IMG/VR virus record: IMGVR_UViG_2703718778_000007
Coordinates: 1 to 38,962 of that record
Direction: 5' to 3' (one strand)
DNA from: a virus
Taxonomy: Duplodnaviria > Heunggongvirae > Uroviricota > Caudoviricetes
Length of the DNA: 38,962 nt
Below the pieces are notes generated by a model. That model saw nothing but the letters and a program-made list of their open reading frames with translations, ran no database searches and was not told where the DNA came from. Position numbers and translations under genes: made by a program. Positions 16,783-38,962 of this stretch are shown piece by piece. The first letter of the stretch is position 1. Each line of letters begins with the position of its first letter.

Positions 16783-17225
16783 ATATCTGTGCAACAGGTA
16801 AGAGCATTCTCCCTTATGGGGCTTGGCTTAAATGCACCGAGTGCTCTTATCGTTGTGGTGAAGCTCAATGGCGAGCTAGCAGATAGGCGACAGTGAAAAT
16901 ACTAGTCATGTAGCTGACCGCCGCGCGTACTGCAATCGGCAGCGCACCGATGGAAGCCGGTTCGATTCCGGCCGCCACAACCCAAACTGAGCCGTAGCCA
17001 CTGGCTATCCTGAATTCATCAGTGATAGTTACGCTGCGGCCTTCTACACATGACCTTCGTGAAAGCGGGTGGCATGAGGTTGCGCTAACAACCTCCTGCC
17101 GTTTTGCCCGTGCATATCGGTCACGAACAAATCTGATTACTAAACACAGTAGCCTGGATTTGTTCTATCAGTAATCGACCTTATTCCTAATTAAATAGAG
17201 CAAATCCCCTTATTGGGGGTAAGAC

Positions 17226-17549
17226 ATGAAGATGCCAGAAAAACATGACCTGTTAGCCGCCATTCTCGCGGCAAAGGAACAAGGCATCGGGGCAATCCTT
17301 GCGTTTGCAATGGCGTACCTTCGCGGCAGATATAATGGCGGTGCGTTTACAAAAACAGTAATCGACGCAACGATGTGCGCCATTATCGCCTGGTTCATTC
17401 GTGACCTTCTCGACTTCGCCGGACTAAGTAGCAATCTCGCTTATATAACGAGCGTGTTTATCGGCTACATCGGTACTGACTCGATTGGTTCGCTTATCAA
17501 ACGCTTCGCTGCTAAAAAAGCCGGAGTAGAAGATGGTGGAAATCAATAA
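17226..17549 (+). CDS. S: Holin S (class I, dual-start MKM: holin/antiholin)
   Basis: [34 protein letters not shown]... matches lambda S. Confidence 0.9.
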
Positions 17550-18009
17550 TCAACGTAAGGCGTTCCTCGATATGCTGGCGTGGTCGGAGGGAACTGATAA
17601 CGGACGTCAGAAAACCAGAAATCATGGTTATGACGTCATTGTTGGCGGAGAGCTATTCACTGATTACTCCGATCACCCTCGCAAACTTGTCACGCTAAAC
17701 CCAAAACTCAAATCAACAGCCGCCGGACGCTACCAGCTTCTTTCCCGTTGGTGGGATGCCTACCGCAAGCAGCTTGGCCTGAAAGACTTCTCTCCGAAAA
17801 GCCAGGACGCTGTGGCACTGCAACAGATTAAAGAGCGTGGCGCTTTACCGATGATTGACCGCGGTGATATTCGTCAGGCAATCGACCGTTGCAGCAATAT
17901 CTGGGCTTCACTGCCGGGCGCTGGTTATGGTCAGTTCGAGCATAAGACTGACAGCCTGATTGCAAAATTCAAAGAAGCAGGCGGAACGGTCAGAGAGATT
18001 GAGGTATGA
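17533..18009 (+). CDS. R: Endolysin R (lytic transglycosylase)
   Basis: [35 protein letters not shown]... matches lambda R. Confidence 0.9.
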
Positions 18010-18464
18010 ACAGAGTAACCGCGATTATCTCTGCTCTGGTTATCTGCATCATCGTCTGCCTGTCATGGGCTGTTAATCATTACCGTGATAACGCCATCGC
18101 CTACAAAGAGCAGCGCGATAACAAGGCCAGTGAACTGGAGAAGGCGAACGCTACCATCGCTGACATGCGGAAGCGTCAACGTGATGTAGCAGAACTCGAC
18201 GCAAGATACACAAAGGAGCTTGCTGATGCTAACGCGACTATCGAAAGTCTCCGTGCTGATGTTTCTGCTGGGCGTAAGCGCCTGCAAGTCGCCGCCACCT
18301 GTGCAAAGTCAACGACCGGAGCCAGCGGCATGGGCGATGGAGAAAGCCCAAGACTTACAGCAGATGCTGAACTCAATTATTACCGTCTCCGAAGTGGAAT
18401 CGACAGGATAACCGCGCAGGTTAACTACTTGCAGGAATACATCAGGACGCAATGCCTTCGATGA
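18006..18464 (+). CDS. Rz: Spanin Rz (i-spanin)
   Basis: [31 protein letters not shown]... matches lambda Rz N-terminus; coiled-coil. Confidence 0.85.
18220..18411 (+). CDS. Rz1: Rz1 (o-spanin lipoprotein) embedded in the +1 frame of Rz
   Basis: Lipobox-like LLGVSAC, Pro-rich mature part; nested inside Rz as in lambda. Confidence 0.7.
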
Positions 18465-18639
18465 TAGCGATAATTTTACTCATCATCCTTCACATCTGGC
18501 TCTGTAGACAGGGTGGTGATCACTTCTGGAGTGAATCCAGATTAAACATCTCATTGCTGATGCTTGAAGTTGAGCATCTGGCGCGCGGTAAGGGGCTGCG
18601 TTGAGATAAGAGCCAGTTCATTACAAACACCAGGATTTA

Positions 18640-18663
18640 GCCTCGCATTCGCGGGGCTTTTTT
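18640..18663 (+). terminator. Rho-independent terminator after the lysis cassette
   Basis: GCCTCGC-ATTC-GCGGGGC followed by TTTTTT. Confidence 0.5.
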
Positions 18664-18812
18664 GCATCTGAATTTCACAGCGCATCTCACGCGCATATTA
18701 CATCACCCGAGCCTTTCAGAAAGTTGAGCCTGAGAACTGCCGTATATGGTGGCGACCATCTCGGGGCGGCTTTTCTGTGAGACAGGCTCACTTTCTAAAA
18801 GGTAAAGACGCT

Positions 18813-19331
18813 ATGAATCATCAATTGGCTAATCTCGATTTCCGGGACATGGTGGTTGTTTCTGGTGATCGCGTGATCACAACCTCCCGCAAGGTAGCAG
18901 CTTACTTCGACAAGCAGCATCACCACATCATTCAGAAAATCGAAAAGCTAGACTGTTCGGATGAATTTCTAACCAGCAACTTTTCGCGGGTTACCTATGA
19001 ACACAAGGGTAATCAGTATGTTGAATATGAAATTTCCAAAGACGGCGCGATGTACATCATCATGTCGTTTACCGGCAAAAAAGCTGCCGCCATCAAAGAG
19101 GCGTTTATCAAAGCATTTAATTGGATGCGTGACAGGCTGATGGAGATGGCTCACTCATACCAAAGAGAGCACAACGAGTTAATGCTGGAGTTCATGAAGG
19201 AAAAGGATGTTGCCAGTATGTCAGGACGCTTGCTGAACCGCTGGGGCAGGATCAAAAAACCGCAACTCATAGCAAGAATCGAAAGGCTTGAGCAGCAGGC
19301 GCAAATATCGATCCCCGGACTGCCAAAGTGA
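18813..19331 (+). CDS. Rha-family phage regulatory protein
   Basis: ATG at 18813 with RBS AGGTAAAG; Phage_pRha-like N-terminal region. Confidence 0.6.
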   Translation: MNHQLANLDFRDMVVVSGDRVITTSRKVAAYFDKQHHHIIQKIEKLDCSDEFLTSNFSRVTYEHKGNQYVEYEISKDGAMYIIMSFTGKKAAAIKEAFIKAFNWMRDRLMEMAHSYQREHNELMLEFMKEKDVASMSGRLLNRWGRIKKPQLIARIERLEQQAQISIPGLPK

Positions 19332-19614
19332 CCATTCCAAAGCCCATCTACGGGTGGGCTTGATAATGAAACCGTGATTTACATCCCCACAATCCGGGTA
19401 TGTAAAAGATAGTTCAGGCAAGAACAGATTTAACTAAATCTGTGCACCACCAGTTGCGGCAGTACCACGAAACAACCCAAGCCAGTAAGTGGGGAAATAA
19501 CACTGGCAGCCACTGAAAGATGAACATCCTGCCTTATGGCAAAAAAGATTCTTTGTGGTGGCGGACTGATGGAAAGACATCCTAATCAAGCAACCACTCC
19601 ACAGGGTCATAATT

Positions 19615-19971
19615 ATGAACGACCAGCAAATCGAAAAAGAAATCGTTGAGAAAGGCAAAACGGCACCGCGCGTTACGCCCCAATATATCGAAAGCATCAT
19701 TCTTGAAGAGCATTTCTTTACTGCTTATGACGGTATTCGTGCCGCCAATATGGGCGTTGGCGATGCGTGGACAGCGCATAAATCTACAGACCTCCTTACT
19801 TTCTGCGTACTGGTGCTGAAGAATGGCTTCACCGTCACCGGAGAGAGTGCCTGTGCAAGCCCGGAAAACTTTGATGCAGAAATTGGTCGGAAGATTGCCC
19901 GGCAAAATGCTGTAAACAAAATCTGGGTGCTCGAAGGTTACTTGCTGAAGCAGAAGCTAAGCGAACAGTAG
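19615..19971 (+). CDS. Gp49-like conserved phage protein
   Basis: 118 aa; family assignment from memory; flanked by related hairpin repeats. Confidence 0.45.
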   Translation: MNDQQIEKEIVEKGKTAPRVTPQYIESIILEEHFFTAYDGIRAANMGVGDAWTAHKSTDLLTFCVLVLKNGFTVTGESACASPENFDAEIGRKIARQNAVNKIWVLEGYLLKQKLSEQ

Positions 19972-20074
19972 TTATTACAAAAGCCATTCCCTACAGAGTG
20001 GCTTTGATAATGGCTTATACCCTACACGGGATAACTTAACTGATATCCCTTTTAACGGATAAACGGAGCCAACA

Positions 20075-20317
20075 ATGGCAGAGATTATTCCCATGACTGA
20101 AGAACAGAAATTCCAGTTAGAGATTTACAAGCTGGTCATGAACCAGAACGCAGCCGCAGAAGAAGCATTTCAATTCATTGGCACTGACGAGCTGAAGCTT
20201 GAGCTATTCAAAATTCACTTCCAGTCAGGCGGCGCTAATTCAGATATCACGACCCGCACTATCGAAGCGGTGCGTAAATCGAAGGAAGCGTTAGACCTGT
20301 TCACCACCGGAGCATAA
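20075..20317 (+). CDS. Hypothetical small phage protein (80 aa)
   Basis: ORF with RBS AACGGAG upstream. Confidence 0.45.
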   Translation: MAEIIPMTEEQKFQLEIYKLVMNQNAAAEEAFQFIGTDELKLELFKIHFQSGGANSDITTRTIEAVRKSKEALDLFTTGA

Positions 20318-20396
20318 ACATGGCAACTCAAGGTTTCGACAACCCATCCAAATTCCGCGATGAATGGGATAAGCAAGCAGAAGGGAAATAATCAAT

Positions 20397-20822
20397 ATGG
20401 CGACTGAGAAAAAGAATGTCGGTCGCCCTTCGGATTACCTGCCGGAGGTGGCTGATGATATCTGTGCGCTGCTTGCCTCCGGGGAAAGTCTGGTTAAGGT
20501 TTGCAAGCGCCCCGGCATGCCAGCAAAGGCTACTGTATTTCGCTGGCTGTCAGAGCATGACGAATTTAGAGACAAGTACGCGAAGGCAACTGAGGCACGA
20601 GCTGATTCTATTTTCGAAGAGATATTCGAAATTGCTGACACTGCGATTCCAGATGCTGCTGAGGTGGCAAAGGCAAGACTTCGCGTTGATACCCGCAAAT
20701 GGGCGCTGGCCCGAATGAATCCCCGTAAGTATGGCGACAAGGTAACTAACGAGCTTGTCGGCAAAGACGGCGGCGCAATCCAGATTGAAACATCACCGAT
20801 GAGCACTCTATTCGGAAAATGA
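20397..20822 (+). CDS. Terminase small subunit
   Basis: 141 aa, N-terminal HTH-like MATEKKNVGRPSDY; immediately upstream of and overlapping the large terminase start. Confidence 0.7.
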   Translation: MATEKKNVGRPSDYLPEVADDICALLASGESLVKVCKRPGMPAKATVFRWLSEHDEFRDKYAKATEARADSIFEEIFEIADTAIPDAAEVAKARLRVDTRKWALARMNPRKYGDKVTNELVGKDGGAIQIETSPMSTLFGK

Positions 20823-22231
20823 CCTCGATTAATCCTATCTTTGAACCGTTCATTGAGGCGCATCGCTACAAAGTTGCCAAAGGCGGTCGAGGTAGCGGTA
20901 AATCATGGGCAATTGCGAGGCTGCTTGTTGAAGCGGCGCGTCGGCAGCCTGTGCGTATTCTCTGCGCGCGTGAACTGCAAAACAGTATCAGCGATTCGGT
21001 AATCCGGTTGCTTGAAGATACCATCGAGCGTGAAGGGTATTCGGCTGAGTTTGAAATTCAGCGTTCAATGATTCGTCATCTCGGAACGAATGCTGAATTC
21101 ATGTTCTACGGCATCAAAAACAACCCGACGAAGATTAAATCGCTCGAAGGTATTGATATCTGCTGGGTGGAAGAAGCGGAGGCGGTAACGAAGGAATCAT
21201 GGGATATCCTGATACCAACCATCCGTAAGCCGTTCTCTGAAATATGGGTGAGCTTTAACCCGAAGAACATCCTCGACGATACCTATCAGCGATTCGTCGT
21301 AAATCCTCCCGATGATATTTGTCTGCTGACGGTGAACTACACCGACAATCCGCACTTTCCTGAAGTTCTCCGTCTGGAGATGGAAGAGTGTAAACGCAGA
21401 AATCCGACCCTGTATCGTCACATCTGGCTTGGTGAGCCAGTGAGCGCAAGTGATATGGCAATCATCAAACGTGAATGGCTTGAAGCCGCAACCGATGCGC
21501 ACAAGAAACTCGGATGGAAAGCGAAAGGCGCGGTTGTTTCTGCTCATGACCCGTCAGATACAGGGCCGGATGCTAAAGGTTATGCATCGCGTCACGGTTC
21601 GGTAGTTAAGCGCATTGCCGAAGGTCTGCTGATGGACATCAACGAGGGGGCTGACTGGGCTACTTCGCTGGCGATTGAAGACGGTGCTGACCACTACTTG
21701 TGGGATGGTGATGGTGTCGGTGCAGGGCTACGCAGACAGACAACGGAAGCGTTCTCCGGCAAGAAAATCACCGCTACGATGTTCAAGGGCAGCGAATCGC
21801 CATTTGATGAAGATGCACCATATCAGGCCGGAGCATGGGCTGATGAAGTCGTGCAGGGCGACAACGTTCGCACTATTGGCGATGTATTCCGCAATAAGCG
21901 AGCGCAATTCTATTACGCGCTAGCTGACAGGCTGTATCTGACATATCGGGCGGTTGTCCACGGTGAGTATGCAGACCCCGACGACATGCTGAGTTTCGAC
22001 AAAGAAGCGATAGGCGAGAAGATGCTGGAGAAGCTGTTTGCAGAACTGACGCAGATTCAGCGCAAATTCAATAACAACGGGAAGCTGGAGCTTATGACTA
22101 AGGTCGAAATGAAGCAGAAGCTCGGTATTCCATCTCCTAACCTGGCTGATGCGCTGATGATGTGTATGCATTGCCCGGCATTGGTCCGCGAAGAAACAGA
22201 AATATACGTTCCCTCATCCTCCAGTTGGTAA
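20819..22231 (+). CDS. Terminase large subunit (ATPase + nuclease)
   Basis: 470 aa; Walker A KGGRGSGKS; length matches Sf6-type TerL. Confidence 0.9.
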   Translation: MTSINPIFEPFIEAHRYKVAKGGRGSGKSWAIARLLVEAARRQPVRILCARELQNSISDSVIRLLEDTIEREGYSAEFEIQRSMIRHLGTNAEFMFYGIKNNPTKIKSLEGIDICWVEEAEAVTKESWDILIPTIRKPFSEIWVSFNPKNILDDTYQRFVVNPPDDICLLTVNYTDNPHFPEVLRLEMEECKRRNPTLYRHIWLGEPVSASDMAIIKREWLEAATDAHKKLGWKAKGAVVSAHDPSDTGPDAKGYASRHGSVVKRIAEGLLMDINEGADWATSLAIEDGADHYLWDGDGVGAGLRRQTTEAFSGKKITATMFKGSESPFDEDAPYQAGAWADEVVQGDNVRTIGDVFRNKRAQFYYALADRLYLTYRAVVHGEYADPDDMLSFDKEAIGEKMLEKLFAELTQIQRKFNNNGKLELMTKVEMKQKLGIPSPNLADALMMCMHCPALVREETEIYVPSSSSW

Positions 22232-37804: not shown

Positions 37805-38962
37805 CTATGACACCTTCTCATCAATCCAGTCCGCCCACCACTGCATCATTTCTCTGCGCTTATCGAGATACTGAGCATGGTTGTAAATCCCACGCACAGA
37901 TCCGCCGTTGGCATGTGCAAGTTGCACTTCAATAGCGTCAGCAGGCCATTCGTGCTCGTTCATAATCGTACTGAATTCATGCCTGAATCCGTGACCGCTT
38001 TCCAGACCCTCATAGCCGATTTGTTTGATCACAAGTAGCACCGCGTTCTCGCAGATTGGCTTCTTCTTATCGTTGCGTCCGGCAAAAACAAACTCTGATA
38101 CTGGTTTGGTGATTGAGCTTAGCGTAGTGAGAAGTTCAACTACCTGGTCTGACATCGGTACTACATGAATCTTGCGGCCCTTCATCACATTGGCGTCGAT
38201 GGTGATAATCCTGTTTTCAAAATCGACGTTCTTCCATTGCATGGAACGAAGCTCTTTCGTTCTTAGGGCTGTATAGCGTAAAACCTTGGTGGCAATGAGC
38301 GATACGATACTTCCTGAAAATGTTGCCAGTGCTTTGTTGAATGCCGGGATCTGGTCTGCAGGAAGAAACGGGAAGTTCTTCTTGCGGTATCCCTTCATGG
38401 CGTCAGCAAGGTCAGGTGCCGGGTTATATTTAGCCCTGCCGGTGACAATAGCGTAACGGAAAACCTCGCCGCATCTTCTGCGTGCTTTGTTGGCTCGCTC
38501 CATTGCACCGCGATCTTCAAATCTGCGGATTACTTCCAGCAGTTGCATCGGCTCAATATCCTGAATTTCAAGGCCGCCGATGACAGGTAAAATGTCGTCA
38601 TCAAACATTTTTGCAAGTTCAGTCGCATACCCTACTGACCATACTTGCTTCTTGTGCTCGTACCATTCCTTGTAAATCGCACTAAAGGAATTGTTGTTAG
38701 ACGAAGCCTTTTTCGCCTTTACCGGATCGATGCCAACCGAGATGTCTTTCCTCGCAGTCCATGCTTTATCCCTTGCTTCCTGCAAAGTCATAAGCGGATA
38801 TTTTCCGACAGTCAGGATTTTCTCCTTACCGTCAATCTTGTAGCGAAGCTGCCATACCTTTTTCCCGGATACAGGGACATAAAGGTACAGGCCATTACCA
38901 TCGAGAAGGCGGTATGGTTTTTCTTTCGGCTTAGCTGCTTCAATCTGCTTAACGGTGAGCAT
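37805..38962 (-). CDS. intS: Tyrosine integrase (IntS-type)
   Basis: 385 aa; N-terminus MLTVKQIEAAKPKEKPYRLLDGNGLYLYV and C-terminal HGFRH...Y catalytic region; start codon is the last 3 bases of the window. Confidence 0.85.
   Translation of the reverse strand: MLTVKQIEAAKPKEKPYRLLDGNGLYLYVPVSGKKVWQLRYKIDGKEKILTVGKYPLMTLQEARDKAWTARKDISVGIDPVKAKKASSNNNSFSAIYKEWYEHKKQVWSVGYATELAKMFDDDILPVIGGLEIQDIEPMQLLEVIRRFEDRGAMERANKARRRCGEVFRYAIVTGRAKYNPAPDLADAMKGYRKKNFPFLPADQIPAFNKALATFSGSIVSLIATKVLRYTALRTKELRSMQWKNVDFENRIITIDANVMKGRKIHVVPMSDQVVELLTTLSSITKPVSEFVFAGRNDKKKPICENAVLLVIKQIGYEGLESGHGFRHEFSTIMNEHEWPADAIEVQLAHANGGSVRGIYNHAQYLDKRREMMQWWADWIDEKVS

Follow-up and report, generated by a model that had tools for sequence, protein, structure and literature searches.

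The window analysed here, a stretch of 38,962 nucleotides, belongs to a P22/Sf6-like prophage in which two hairpins, designated H1 and H2, stand on either side of a small cargo gene between the lysis and packaging modules. Their position raises the question of whether they are promoters, terminators, joints for the exchange of genes, or signals in the RNA of the late operon. Both are located on the sense strand of this operon, 1–2 nt past a stop codon (Table 1).

Two Hairpins of a Common Plan Flank the Cargo Gene

H1 and H2 consist of an AU-rich lower stem AUUR/YAAU, a 2 × 2 internal loop of 5'-CA opposite 5'-GA, and a G+C-rich upper stem of 9–10 bp with 4–6 G-C pairs (Table 1). In the hairpin family the AUUR/YAAU stem is often longer by 1–5 pairs. 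The H1 of the window carries ATTC instead of the usual ATTA, which reduces its lower stem to four pairs and weakens it. The predicted fold of H1 has a free energy of -18.4 kcal/mol (z -3.5), that of H2 of -20.6 kcal/mol (z -5.2).

An earlier note, made from the sequence alone, had assigned 7-bp stems to both elements and had placed GATAATG after the hairpins. The upper stems are longer, and GATAATG is the 3' half of the structure itself: GA lies in the internal loop and TAAT(G) pairs with the upstream (C)ATTA. The extent given there for H2 (AAAGCC...GATAATG, 19980–20012) is exact, but H1 was placed one base off, as AAGCCC...GATAATG runs from 19340 to 19368 and not from 19341 to 19369.

Table 1. 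Features of the hairpin region, with positions in the window.
Feature	Position	Strand	Basis or remark
Upstream accessory gene, Rha family	18777..19331	+	Pfam Phage_pRha and ORF11CD3; TGA stop at 19329–19331, 1 nt before H1
Hairpin H1, full element	19333..19368	+	Fold, covariance model
H1 lower stem, CATT(C)/(T)AATG	19333–19337 with 19364–19368	+	
H1 internal loop, CA opposite GA	19338–19339 and 19362–19363	+	
H1 upper stem, 9 bp	19340–19348 with 19353–19361	+	
H1 tetraloop, UACG	19349–19352	+	
Variable spacer, two more hairpins	19378..19443	+	Present in one class of relatives, replaced in another
Spacer hairpin, TTTACATCCCC/GGGTATGTAAA	19378–19406		
Spacer palindrome, perfect, 9 bp, ACAGATTTA/TAAATCTGT	19424–19443		
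Conserved non-coding core, ending ...GGAAAGACATC	19445..19583	+	Comparison with relatives
Leader of the cargo gene	19584–19614	+	Precedes the gp49-like ORF
Cargo gene in slot, 118-aa Phage_gp49_66 family protein	19615..19971	+	Pfam; TAG stop at 19969–19971
Hairpin H2, full element	19970..20015	+	Fold, covariance model
H2 outer stem, AGTT/GGCT	19970–19973 with 20012–20015	+	
H2 lower stem, ATTA/TAAT	19974–19977 with 20008–20011	+	
H2 internal loop, CA opposite GA	19978–19979 and 20006–20007	+	
H2 upper stem, 10 bp	19980–19989 with 19996–20005	+	
H2 loop, CCUACA	19990–19995	+	
Right flank of H2, conserved, TATACCCTACACGGGATAACTTAACTGATATCCC...	20016..20074	+	Leads to the DUF2560 gene
Downstream gene, orf80/hkbM (DUF2560)	20075..20317	+	Small terminase gene next, at 20397

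H1 and H2 differ in their apical parts, and the 9-mer TTGATAATG does not by itself reach significance (two found versus 0.56 expected; two or more in 11 of 100 shuffles). A covariance model built from H2 variants only, which scores H2 at 65.5 bits, retrieved H1, at 23.3 bits (E ~1e-3), as the second-best match of the 39-kb window. The composite hairpin match, unlike the 9-mer, significantly exceeds chance, and the H2-only model bears out the earlier description of the two elements as related. The same model found no third copy in the window, where the reverse strand of H2 scored 13.7 bits and the rest at most ~11 bits; the window contains two copies only.

Compensatory Changes and Strand Preference

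Among 20 distinct variants of H2, 96.4% of the cells are paired and both sides have changed in 7 of 18 pairs. The broad set, 18 sequences from at least 10 genera, is 98.5% paired, with double changes in 7 of 15 pairs. Covariation amounts to 0.356 in the H2 set, against 0.239 ± 0.016 after shuffling (reached in none of 500) and at most 0.13 in slid controls, and to 0.433 versus 0.198 in the broad set, although these shuffle-based statistics are inflated, many of the sequences being closely related.

The changes form stepwise series, one from GAGACC/GGTCTC through GAGGCC/GGTCTC to GAGGCC/GGCCTC, and another, in the lower stem, from ATTA/TAAT through ATTG/TAAT to ATTG/CAAT. In the latter, the change of GATAAT to GACAAT covaries with that of ATTA to ATTG on the opposite arm (AU in eight, GC in six, and GU in four). 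As a test with less bias, we scanned 185,579 species genomes with the pattern ATTRCA-N7-TTC-N3-6-GAG-N7-GAYAATGG, in which both N7 segments are unconstrained and the apex TTC/GAG is that of the H2 type. This yielded 28 matches. The N7 segments are complementary at 7/7 positions in 17 of them, which are all Enterobacterales-type and represent eight different stem sequences, and form 0–5 of the 7 pairs in the remaining 11. As the lower stem, loop, and apex are fixed by the scan pattern, their invariance in the distant members is not independent evidence.

H1 variants keep 97% of the pairing and show one-sided G.U or U.A changes only. There is no double compensatory change in H1, which is thus supported by its wobble-only variation and its resemblance to H2.

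All copies are on the sense strand of the late operon. For 21 of the 22 members, the sense RNA is predicted to fold more stably than the antisense RNA, with a mean difference of 6.5 kcal/mol. Together, the compensatory changes through G.U intermediates and the folding of the sense strand point to selection on RNA structure. A hairpin of single-stranded DNA would give similar covariation, which counts against an RNA-level reading. The covariation indicating an RNA-level structure, the main point of this locus, had been overlooked in the earlier note.

Occurrence Among Phages and Prophages

In lambdoid phages the hairpin family follows small accessory genes in the region that separates the lysis cassette from the packaging genes. 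A phage carries no more than one or two copies, which occupy the post-lysis region in all prophages whose context was examined. H1 stands after at least seven unrelated genes, with the stop codon 2–15 nt upstream, and the position of the Rha-family gene is occupied by unrelated genes in relatives. Placement after a stop codon is also seen in prophages of Serratia, Pantoea, Apirhabdus, Atlantibacter, Raoultella, and Enterobacter, downstream of holin, endolysin, or Rz genes. The neighboring genes differ among phages (Rha, KilA-N/hkbL, gene 65, DUF2560, and others), as do the terminase and head types of the carriers (P22-like, HK97-like, and Stx phages).

In Raoultella a second hairpin pair brackets a 74-aa gene. 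One copy from this genus has a closed internal loop (CA/TG), indicating that the loop is no strict requirement. Of 5426 complete E. coli genomes, 2677, about half, match some part of the 742-bp stretch from H1 to orf80 (19333–20074); the hairpin is absent from the cryptic prophages DLP12 and Qin of K-12. Small annotated ORFs that overlap the hairpin, such as orf25 of P22, are probably not genes.

A Variable Cargo Slot Between Conserved Landmarks

H1 and the gp49-like ORF are separated by 246 nt of non-coding DNA (19369–19614), of which ~140 nt are conserved and are kept in relatives that lack the gene. The spacer adjacent to H1 is present in one class of relatives, and another class has in its place a spacer that is ~58 nt shorter (H1-to-core distance of 165 versus 107). 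The core occurs in P22, L, HK97, HK022, HK620, and Sf6, with or without a cargo gene after it; ~115 nt of it are nearly invariant in 67 distinct sequences, and its right end forms the left edge of the cargo slot. A small ORF in the core (MNILPYGKKDSLWWRTDGKTS) was rejected as a gene, as it has no Shine-Dalgarno sequence, its C-terminus varies with the cargo junction, and its substitutions are not biased toward third positions.

The slot before H2 is unoccupied at 42 loci of relatives and otherwise contains gp49-like variants, a DUF551 gene, a gene of 56–59 aa, or a remnant. Replacement of the gp49-like gene by other cargo, which had been put forward as a check, is therefore observed. The hairpins do bracket the gp49-like ORF, as first noticed, but they are not tied to this gene as such: HK620, APC_JM3.2, HK97, and P22 lack it and retain an H2 variant, and mostly H1 as well, around the non-coding core. 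The right flank of H2 (20016–20074) accompanies H2 and, in certain phages, the body of an H1, and the distance from the end of the H2 match (20011) to the ATG of the DUF2560 gene is 64 nt in nearly all loci.

Both Hairpins Coincide With Mosaic Junctions

Breakpoints of megablast alignments fall at the edges of the hairpins, at 19333 and 19371 for H1 and at 19971–19974 for H2, and many E. coli matches begin at H2 and continue through the right flank. The flanks are reassorted, with 61 copies of H1 combining 14 upstream with 6 downstream classes and 94 copies of H2 combining 13 with 9. Phage 2851, L034, and L067 have single hybrid hairpins with the body of H1 and the flank of H2, and everything between H1 and H2 is missing.

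H1 and H2 are short conserved segments with unrelated sequence on both sides among phages, which is what defines a boundary sequence. The concept of such sequences, proposed to serve homologous exchange at the module junctions of lambdoid phages, has been summarized (PMC3029335), and 'bsq' boundary features are annotated in the Sf6 record; none of its bsq2–bsq7 lies at the hairpin sites (37836–37870 and 38500–38537). The proposal that the elements are boundary sequences holds in that both are sharp mosaic junctions with reassorted flanks and in that H1/H2 hybrids exist. Mobilization of the cargo gene, proposed along with it, is not borne out: there is no dedicated recombinase nearby, and ordinary short-homology recombination is sufficient. 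Red-beta requires an identity of only 23–27 bp (PMC3945230). Because H1 and H2 have only 12–14 identical bases in common, the H1 × H2 events reflect rare microhomology and not a designed reaction.

Searches for Known Elements

There was no gathering-level match to Rfam 15 in the window and five phage loci, with nothing on H1 or H2, and no tRNA or tmRNA was found. A 17-bit match to the Rfam family Proteo-phage-1 at 19448–19511 did not recur in the five related loci and was attributed to chance. A candidate IHF site on the minus strand (WATCAANNNNTTR) misfits in its TTR part, as judged by eye. The prophage sRNAs AgvB, AsxR, STnc100, and Esr41 are Rfam families with no match here, and the Pas sRNAs, AgvB, and AsxR map near Q and holin, not at the hairpin region. 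A REP-like GTAG 5' of the hairpin is confined to copies that chance to follow a TAG stop codon. The inverse core/core arrangement of attC-like sites, RYYYAAC...GTTRRRY, is absent from H1 and H2, and their neighbors are lysis, accessory, and terminase genes, with no IntI integrase.

Papers on BTP1 and P22 transcripts cover pid and STnc6030 and are silent on the hairpins (PMC7067206; PMC8835761; PMC6333337). The hairpin is unmarked as a feature in the records of Sf6, L, HK620, P22, HK97, ES18, and BTP1, and we found no description of it in the literature searched.

Alternative Explanations

The earlier note read TTGATAAT as an extended -10 element, in which case the hairpins would be sigma-70 promoters driving the downstream genes. 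GATAAT does agree with TATAAT at five of six positions and is located upstream of small genes. However, the hexamer is preceded by CTT (H1) or TTT (H2) and not by TGN, no -35 element is present at 16–19 nt (the nearest -35-like sequences, ATTACA and TTACAA, are 21–23 nt away), a promoter scan gave no site on the + strand in 17000–22000, and the region lies inside the Q-dependent late operon. The frequent variant GACAAT makes a poorer hexamer, and the pairing of its T-to-C change with an A-to-G change on the opposite arm shows the behavior of a base pair rather than of a -10 hexamer. We reject the promoter reading as very improbable. Intrinsic terminators, decayed or weak, that insulate morons by stopping their transcripts in the lysogen and are read through by Q-modified polymerase in lytic growth would account for a G+C-rich upper stem directly after a stop codon, the classic moron layout. 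Terminators are tolerated within Q-antiterminated operons, as known for lambda Q, and two distant members of the family have U-rich tails (GATAATGGATTTTTTT in Serratia and GATAATGGTTATTTTC in Enterobacillus). Against this, ~12 of 14 distinct 3' flanks lack a U-tract, including both window copies, whose tails are GAUAAUGAAACC after H1 and UAUACCCU after the full H2 stem. The terminator scan calls neither hairpin, in agreement with the earlier observations that no T-run follows them and that they are not simple terminators. Nor are the AU lower stem, the CA/GA loop, and the U.G wobble, all of them conserved, characteristic of terminators, and the records of phage L and Sf6 annotate many terminators but none at the hairpin sites, so that termination appears unlikely.

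The hairpins could also act at the level of DNA only, either as mere recombination joints or as single-stranded folds on which a site-specific recombinase acts in an attC-like manner, cutting and joining them, allowing cassette movement with no function in RNA. A plain homology patch needs no hairpin and no pairing kept via G.U intermediates, and it is not expected to be strand-specific with respect to transcription or to lie directly after stop codons. Neither a dedicated recombinase nor an integron-type integrase gene is present, the attC core sites RYYYAAC/GTTRRRY are lacking, and the annotators of Sf6 did not include the hairpin sites among bsq2–7. We therefore consider a purely DNA-based role improbable, even though it agrees with the sharp junctions and reassorted flanks, with the alternative cargo genes between the same landmarks and the second pair around the 74-aa gene in Raoultella, with hybrids as expected from H1 × H2 deletion, and with the existing boundary-sequence concept for lambdoid phages (Sf6 'bsq'; PMC3029335). 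Finally, the hairpins may be RNA sites bound by a specific protein of phage or host origin that regulates translation or stability, instead of sites of nuclease processing. The CA/GA loop, the U.G wobble 3 bp below the loop, and the UUC/GAG apex of the H2 type are conserved and the mid-stem covaries, a combination typical of protein-recognized hairpins. Yet the hairpin is not accompanied by any conserved candidate for the binding protein, as neighbors, terminase, and head types vary; the apical parts of H1 and H2 differ, and one copy has no internal loop. This explanation, too, has a low probability in our view.

A Proposed Role in the Late mRNA

H1 and H2 are likely to be structured elements at the level of RNA that double as mosaic junctions. 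We lean slightly toward the fuller reading in which they are conserved hairpins for the processing or stabilization of the late mRNA, perhaps as RNase III-type sites, that also serve as recombination homology; the RNase III-type mechanism in particular is a tentative candidate, drawn by analogy with known substrates. In BTP1, transcription of the lytic genes proceeds as a single long polycistronic operon (PMC7067206). In the Q-antiterminated late transcript, H1 and H2 would function in the sense RNA as a post-transcriptional signal, most likely one for endonucleolytic processing or for the stability of 3' ends, in the manner of RNase III sites. Substrates of RNase III typically comprise about two helical turns, and internal loops restrict cleavage to one strand, such that protective 3' hairpins remain (PMC1540722). 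Compared to the ~20 bp of such substrates (PMC1540722), H2 comprises 18 pairs and 2 mismatched positions, and H1 and the distant members have 14–19. Helix length in the family is 17–21 positions, at the low end for RNase III. Nearly all copies, with one exception, have the 2 × 2 CA/GA internal loop at a distance of 9–10 bp from the apical loop.

In the proposed mechanism, the helix of ~20 positions, broken by the internal loop, would limit cleavage to one strand. Cleavage would leave a protective 3' hairpin on the upstream cistron, and the accessory-gene mRNA would thereby have a fate independent of the mRNA for lysis and head genes. The element of 36–46 nt, kept beside many unrelated genes, could provide short homology where phage recombinases swap cassettes. 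By supplying this homology, the retained hairpin may account for the alternative cargo genes as well as for the H1/H2 hybrids.

It is conceivable, though we hold this with limited confidence, that the hairpins represent an uncatalogued cis-acting RNA motif of the lambdoid post-lysis accessory region, read by a nuclease or RNA-binding protein via the CA/GA loop and the U.G wobble, and that its conservation makes the region a site of cassette exchange. If so, this would give a mechanistic basis to the 'linker sequence' idea, with junctions held by RNA-level selection and reused by recombination. Confirmation of an RNA role would provide a testable example of why lambdoid mosaic junctions are sharp and often reused. 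It would also imply a post-transcriptional punctuation of the late operon between the lysis, accessory, and packaging genes, which is not addressed in the literature searched. The hairpin is present in prophages of many Enterobacterales genera, yet no Rfam 15 family corresponds to it in the window and five phage loci. As the hairpins mark the ends of the cargo slot, they may aid the annotation of accessory genes, possibly with functions in defense or anti-defense.

Comparison With Known Systems

Like moron or intrinsic terminators, H1 and H2 are G+C-rich stem-loops directly downstream of an optional accessory gene in a late operon; they differ from these in the missing U-tract of most members and in the conservation of the internal loop and the AU lower stem. 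The stabilizer hairpins of the REP/BIME type are likewise imperfect palindromes of ~35–40 nt after stop codons that could block 3'–5' exonucleases, and as repeated elements they can be substrates for recombination. In contrast to REP/BIME, the hairpin is limited to one or two copies in a phage, lying in the post-lysis region of all prophages examined in context, with no RAYT transposase and no conserved GTAG. The attC sites of integrons resemble H1 and H2 in that they, too, are imperfect hairpins, with structure conserved above sequence, and in that each stands at the 3' end of a small cassette devoid of a promoter. The hairpins described here lack the core sites, the integron integrase, and the array, and their wobble pairs favor the transcribed strand as RNA.

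RNase III sites, such as those of the T7 R1.1 type and in the retroregulation by lambda sib, share with H1 and H2 the layout of an intercistronic hairpin of very roughly two turns, with an internal loop, after a cistron of a long polycistronic transcript. The internal loop of T7 R1.1 is larger and asymmetric. H1 and H2, which are candidate sites, differ from the T7 R1.1 type in their shorter helix (17–21), their symmetric 2 × 2 CA/GA loop, the absence of sequence similarity, and the existence of one loopless member.

The boundary or linker sequences of HK620 and Sf6, and of the Susskind-Botstein module theory, are alike in being short conserved segments at module junctions with unrelated flanks. 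To our knowledge, no covarying strand-specific hairpin is known for the classic boundary sequences. H1 and H2 are not among the bsq of Sf6, and they differ from these in that their conservation has a recognizable cause, namely a covarying, strand-specific hairpin.

Two Related Hairpins in the Late Operon

The window is a P22-like prophage (Lederbergvirus; Sf6/HK620-type), whose late operon runs on the + strand from holin to portal; transcription data for BTP1 show such an operon to be polycistronic (PMC7067206). The earlier note had described two hairpins with 7-bp stems, each followed by GATAATG. Both are present in the sequence (H1 and H2), H2 exactly where it had been placed and H1 one base away, but the inverted repeats reach further and include the GA and UAAU, so that GATAATG makes up the 3′ side of the internal loop and lower stem and is not a trailing motif. 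RNA folding predicts both structures as drawn in the table (H1, -18.4 kcal/mol, z -3.5; H2, -20.6 kcal/mol, z -5.2).

Features of the late operon around the two hairpins (window coordinates)
Feature	Position	Strand	Description
Holin	17226	+	
Lysozyme	17533	+	
Rz	18006	+	
Rha-family gene	18777-19331	+	
H1	19333-19368	+	C-ATT(C) / CA / AAGCCCAUC-[UACG]-GGUGGGCUU / GA / UAAU-G
Core	19445-19583		Non-coding; almost invariant in 67 distinct sequences
Phage_gp49_66 gene	19615-19971	+	118 aa
H2	19970-20015	+	AGUU-AUUA / CA / AAAGCCAUUC-[CCUACA]-GAGUGGCUUU / GA / UAAU-GGCU
DUF2560 gene (orf80/hkbM)	20075-20317	+	
Small terminase	20397	+	Sf6-type
Large terminase	20819	+	
Portal	22162	+	

The 9-mer common to H1 and H2 has by itself no statistical significance. 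Their relatedness is nevertheless borne out by a covariance model built from H2 variants only, which ranks H1 second among all its matches in the window (23.3 bits, E about 1e-3). A third copy is absent: the reverse strand of H2 scores 13.7 bits, and all remaining matches reach about 11 bits or less. A structural regular expression likewise matches the complete Sf6 genome exactly twice, and each of the HK620, phiKp_30 and APC_JM3.2 loci twice, always on the + strand.

The Hairpin Stems Covary

H2 variants differ by compensatory changes, the upper stem pairing as AAAGCCA/UGGCUUU in the window, GAGACCA/UGGUCUC in APC_JM3.2, GAGGCCA/UGGUCUC (one G.U pair) in HK620, GAGGCCA/UGGCCUC in P22, and GGAGCUC/GGGCUUC and GCAGCCC/GGGCUGC in two further loci (L022 and L061). 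The lower stem forms the series AUUA/UAAU, AUUG/UAAU and AUUG/CAAU. Over 20 distinct H2 sequences 96.4% of cells are paired and 7 of 18 pairs changed on both sides; none of 500 shuffles (0.239 ± 0.016) reaches the covariation score of 0.356, and slid controls give 0.13 or less. The 16 H1 variants are 97% paired, with one-sided changes only (G.U or U.A).

As these local alignments are open to shared-ancestry bias, 185,579 species, each represented by a single genome, were scanned for ATTRCA-N7-TTC-N3-6-GAG-N7-GAYAATGG, leaving both N7 segments free. This yielded 28 matches (about 17 expected by chance), and in 17 of them the N7 segments are complementary at 7/7 positions, with eight different stem sequences. 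They come from Serratia (GGUGGCG/CGCCACC), Pantoea and Apirhabdus (GAAGCCC/GGGCUUC), Enterobacillus (ACAGGCA/UGCCUGU), Citrobacter, Raoultella, Kluyvera, Atlantibacter and E. coli types. An Enterobacter prophage provides one more genuine member (5/7 pairs), and the other ten matches, from unrelated phyla and Xenorhabdus, form 0–5 pairs. In the combined alignment pairing is 98.5%, with 7 of 15 pairs doubly changed (covariation score 0.433 vs. 0.198 ± 0.019). Four MAG contigs (L101, L112, L115, L104), labeled Bacillota, Collinsella or Advenella, have hairpins and flanks identical to those of E. coli or Enterobacillus prophages; most likely they are enterobacterial prophage contigs placed in the wrong bins.

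Strand and Position Are Fixed

The hairpin family is strand-specific: every copy lies on the late-operon sense strand, and for 21 of 22 members G.U pairs make the sense RNA more stable than its antisense counterpart (mean difference 6.5 kcal/mol). This bias speaks for a structure in RNA, or at least in the single sense strand, rather than for a site in duplex DNA. Placement is fixed as well: within the polycistronic operon the hairpin starts 2–15 nt past the stop codon of an accessory gene. Upstream of H1 that gene can belong to any of seven or more unrelated families (two Rha types, hkbL-like, gene-65-like, a 159–173-aa protein, and 62-, 91- and 95-aa proteins). In distant genera the hairpin is again found 3′ of an accessory gene just past holin/endolysin/Rz-Rz1. 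Two copies in Raoultella sp. (L110 7446-7482 and 7810-7859) surround a 74-aa ORF that follows a DUF2560 homologue; the second is a perfect 15-bp palindrome, its internal loop closed by paired CA/TG in place of CA/GA. The P22 'orf25' (L008 1949-2026), which starts at an ATG in the H2 loop and crosses the H2 3′ arm, is probably an annotation artefact and no gene.

A Conserved Core and a Cargo Slot

In every case aligned, the constant content between H1 and H2 is a non-coding stretch with a nearly invariant core of ~115–140 nt (equivalents L001 2470-2609 and, in P22, L008 1790-1925), found in P22, L, HK97, HK022, HK620 and Sf6. When relatives are aligned, H1 and a variant of H2 both turn out to be retained in HK620 and APC_JM3.2, which have no gp49-like gene. 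We surveyed the segment from the core end (...GGAAAGACATC) to H2 in 80 IMG/VR loci retrieved via the orf80 protein. It is empty in 42, where H2 is always of the 35-nt type; filled slots hold the gp49-like gene (118–126 aa), a DUF551 gene (71 aa), a gene of 56–59 aa or a 190-bp remnant, and all of them have the 38-nt H2 type, as the window does. The earlier note had asked whether relatives carry other cargo between the same landmarks, and they do; a cargo slot exists, although it is limited by core and H2, and not by H1 and H2.

Taken as a whole, the H1-core-H2 module has a far better predicted fold on the sense RNA (z -4.6) than on the antisense (z -1.85), and the core may serve as a structured leader or give rise to a processed RNA. 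It also holds a weak small ORF, MN[IL][LQ]PYGKKDSLWWRTDGKTS..., whose C-terminus differs with each cargo junction. According to the phage L record, the core contains a terminator on the minus strand (L006 1624-1668, window about 19527-19544), and a consensus scan likewise flags that site; this candidate is unconvincing on either strand, the minus-strand T-run lying 5′ of the TGCC/GGCA hairpin. A match to Proteo-phage-1 (RF03044) at 19448-19511 (17.4 bits, E 2.5, gathering score 42) was judged chance, since it does not recur in five related loci. In the variable spacer 3′ of H1, a perfect 9-bp inverted repeat, ACAGATTTA-AC-TAAATCTGT (19424-19443), occurs in one spacer class only; the other class is ~58 nt shorter. 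The gp49-like proteins (118, 123, 124 or 126 aa; window, L002, L010, L014, L016, L056) have near-identical N- and C-terminal thirds, and their central ~40 aa are swapped for unrelated segments of varied length, so that the gene contains a mosaic or hypervariable patch.

The Hairpins Coincide With Reused Mosaic Junctions

Phage BLAST matches begin or end at 19333 and 19371, and many E. coli matches begin at 19971-19974. Stx phages, phage 2851, mEp043 and ev099 have H1 alone, and in ES18 H1 is joined to just a part of what lies downstream. P22 and BTP1 carry core and H2 without H1, whereas HK97, HK022, L, HK620 and Sf6 carry both hairpins; head and terminase types vary among these phages. Among fetched loci, the flanks of 61 H1 copies fall into 14 classes upstream and 6 downstream, which are reassorted among the copies, and those of 94 H2 copies into 13 and 9. 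Phage 2851 and two further loci (L034, L067) have one hybrid hairpin, an H1 body joined inside GAYAATG to the H2 right flank, and are missing all H1-to-H2 content, as H1 x H2 recombination, or reverse insertion, would leave. Exchange between phages at H1 x H1 or H2 x H2 offers 36–46 nt of identity, which exceeds the 23–27 bp needed by Red-beta-type recombinases (PMC3945230), whereas H1 and H2 have only 12–14 nt in common. In P22 (L008 1973-2633) and BTP1 (L089 1671-2329) the pid moron, which lies on the minus strand and has a terminator of its own, is inserted directly 3′ of H2, before orf80, and the 3′ edge of H2 is thus also an insertion point.

Possible Function of the Hairpins

The extended -10 promoter suggested in the earlier note is rejected: TGN and a -35 are missing, the promoter scan is blank there, and the GATAAT hexamer co-varies with the opposite arm. 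That note had also held that the hairpins are not simple terminators, in agreement with the missing U-tract at H1, H2 and most family members, and intrinsic termination is a weak explanation for the family; two distant members do have a U-tract, so that descent from terminators is possible. A purely DNA linker or attC-like site fares poorly, as it leaves the hairpin, wobble pairs and strand bias unexplained and comes with no recombinase or core sites.

The hairpins have no match in Rfam 15 and are unmarked in the inspected records of Sf6, L, HK620, P22, HK97, ES18 and BTP1; the Sf6 record does list 'bsq' boundary sequences, but at other places. Nor are they mentioned in the accessible literature on the region, which covers the P22 pid locus, the BTP1 transcriptome and surveys of prophage sRNAs. 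Intercistronic mRNA hairpins and lambdoid boundary sequences are familiar kinds of element; neither this motif nor a connection of the two roles seems to have been described.

We favor a processing or stability signal in the late transcript, which may be an RNase III site or a plain exonuclease barrier, with the target of a specific RNA-binding protein as a rival reading. If the hairpin is conserved as such a signal, its junction role would follow as a by-product. This reading is suggested by anatomy: a helix of ~17–21 positions with an internal loop 9–10 bp below the apical loop, located between cistrons of a long phage transcript. Phage RNase III sites share this interrupted intercistronic helix; there the internal loop restricts cleavage to one strand, and the 3′ hairpin left behind protects the upstream RNA (PMC1540722).
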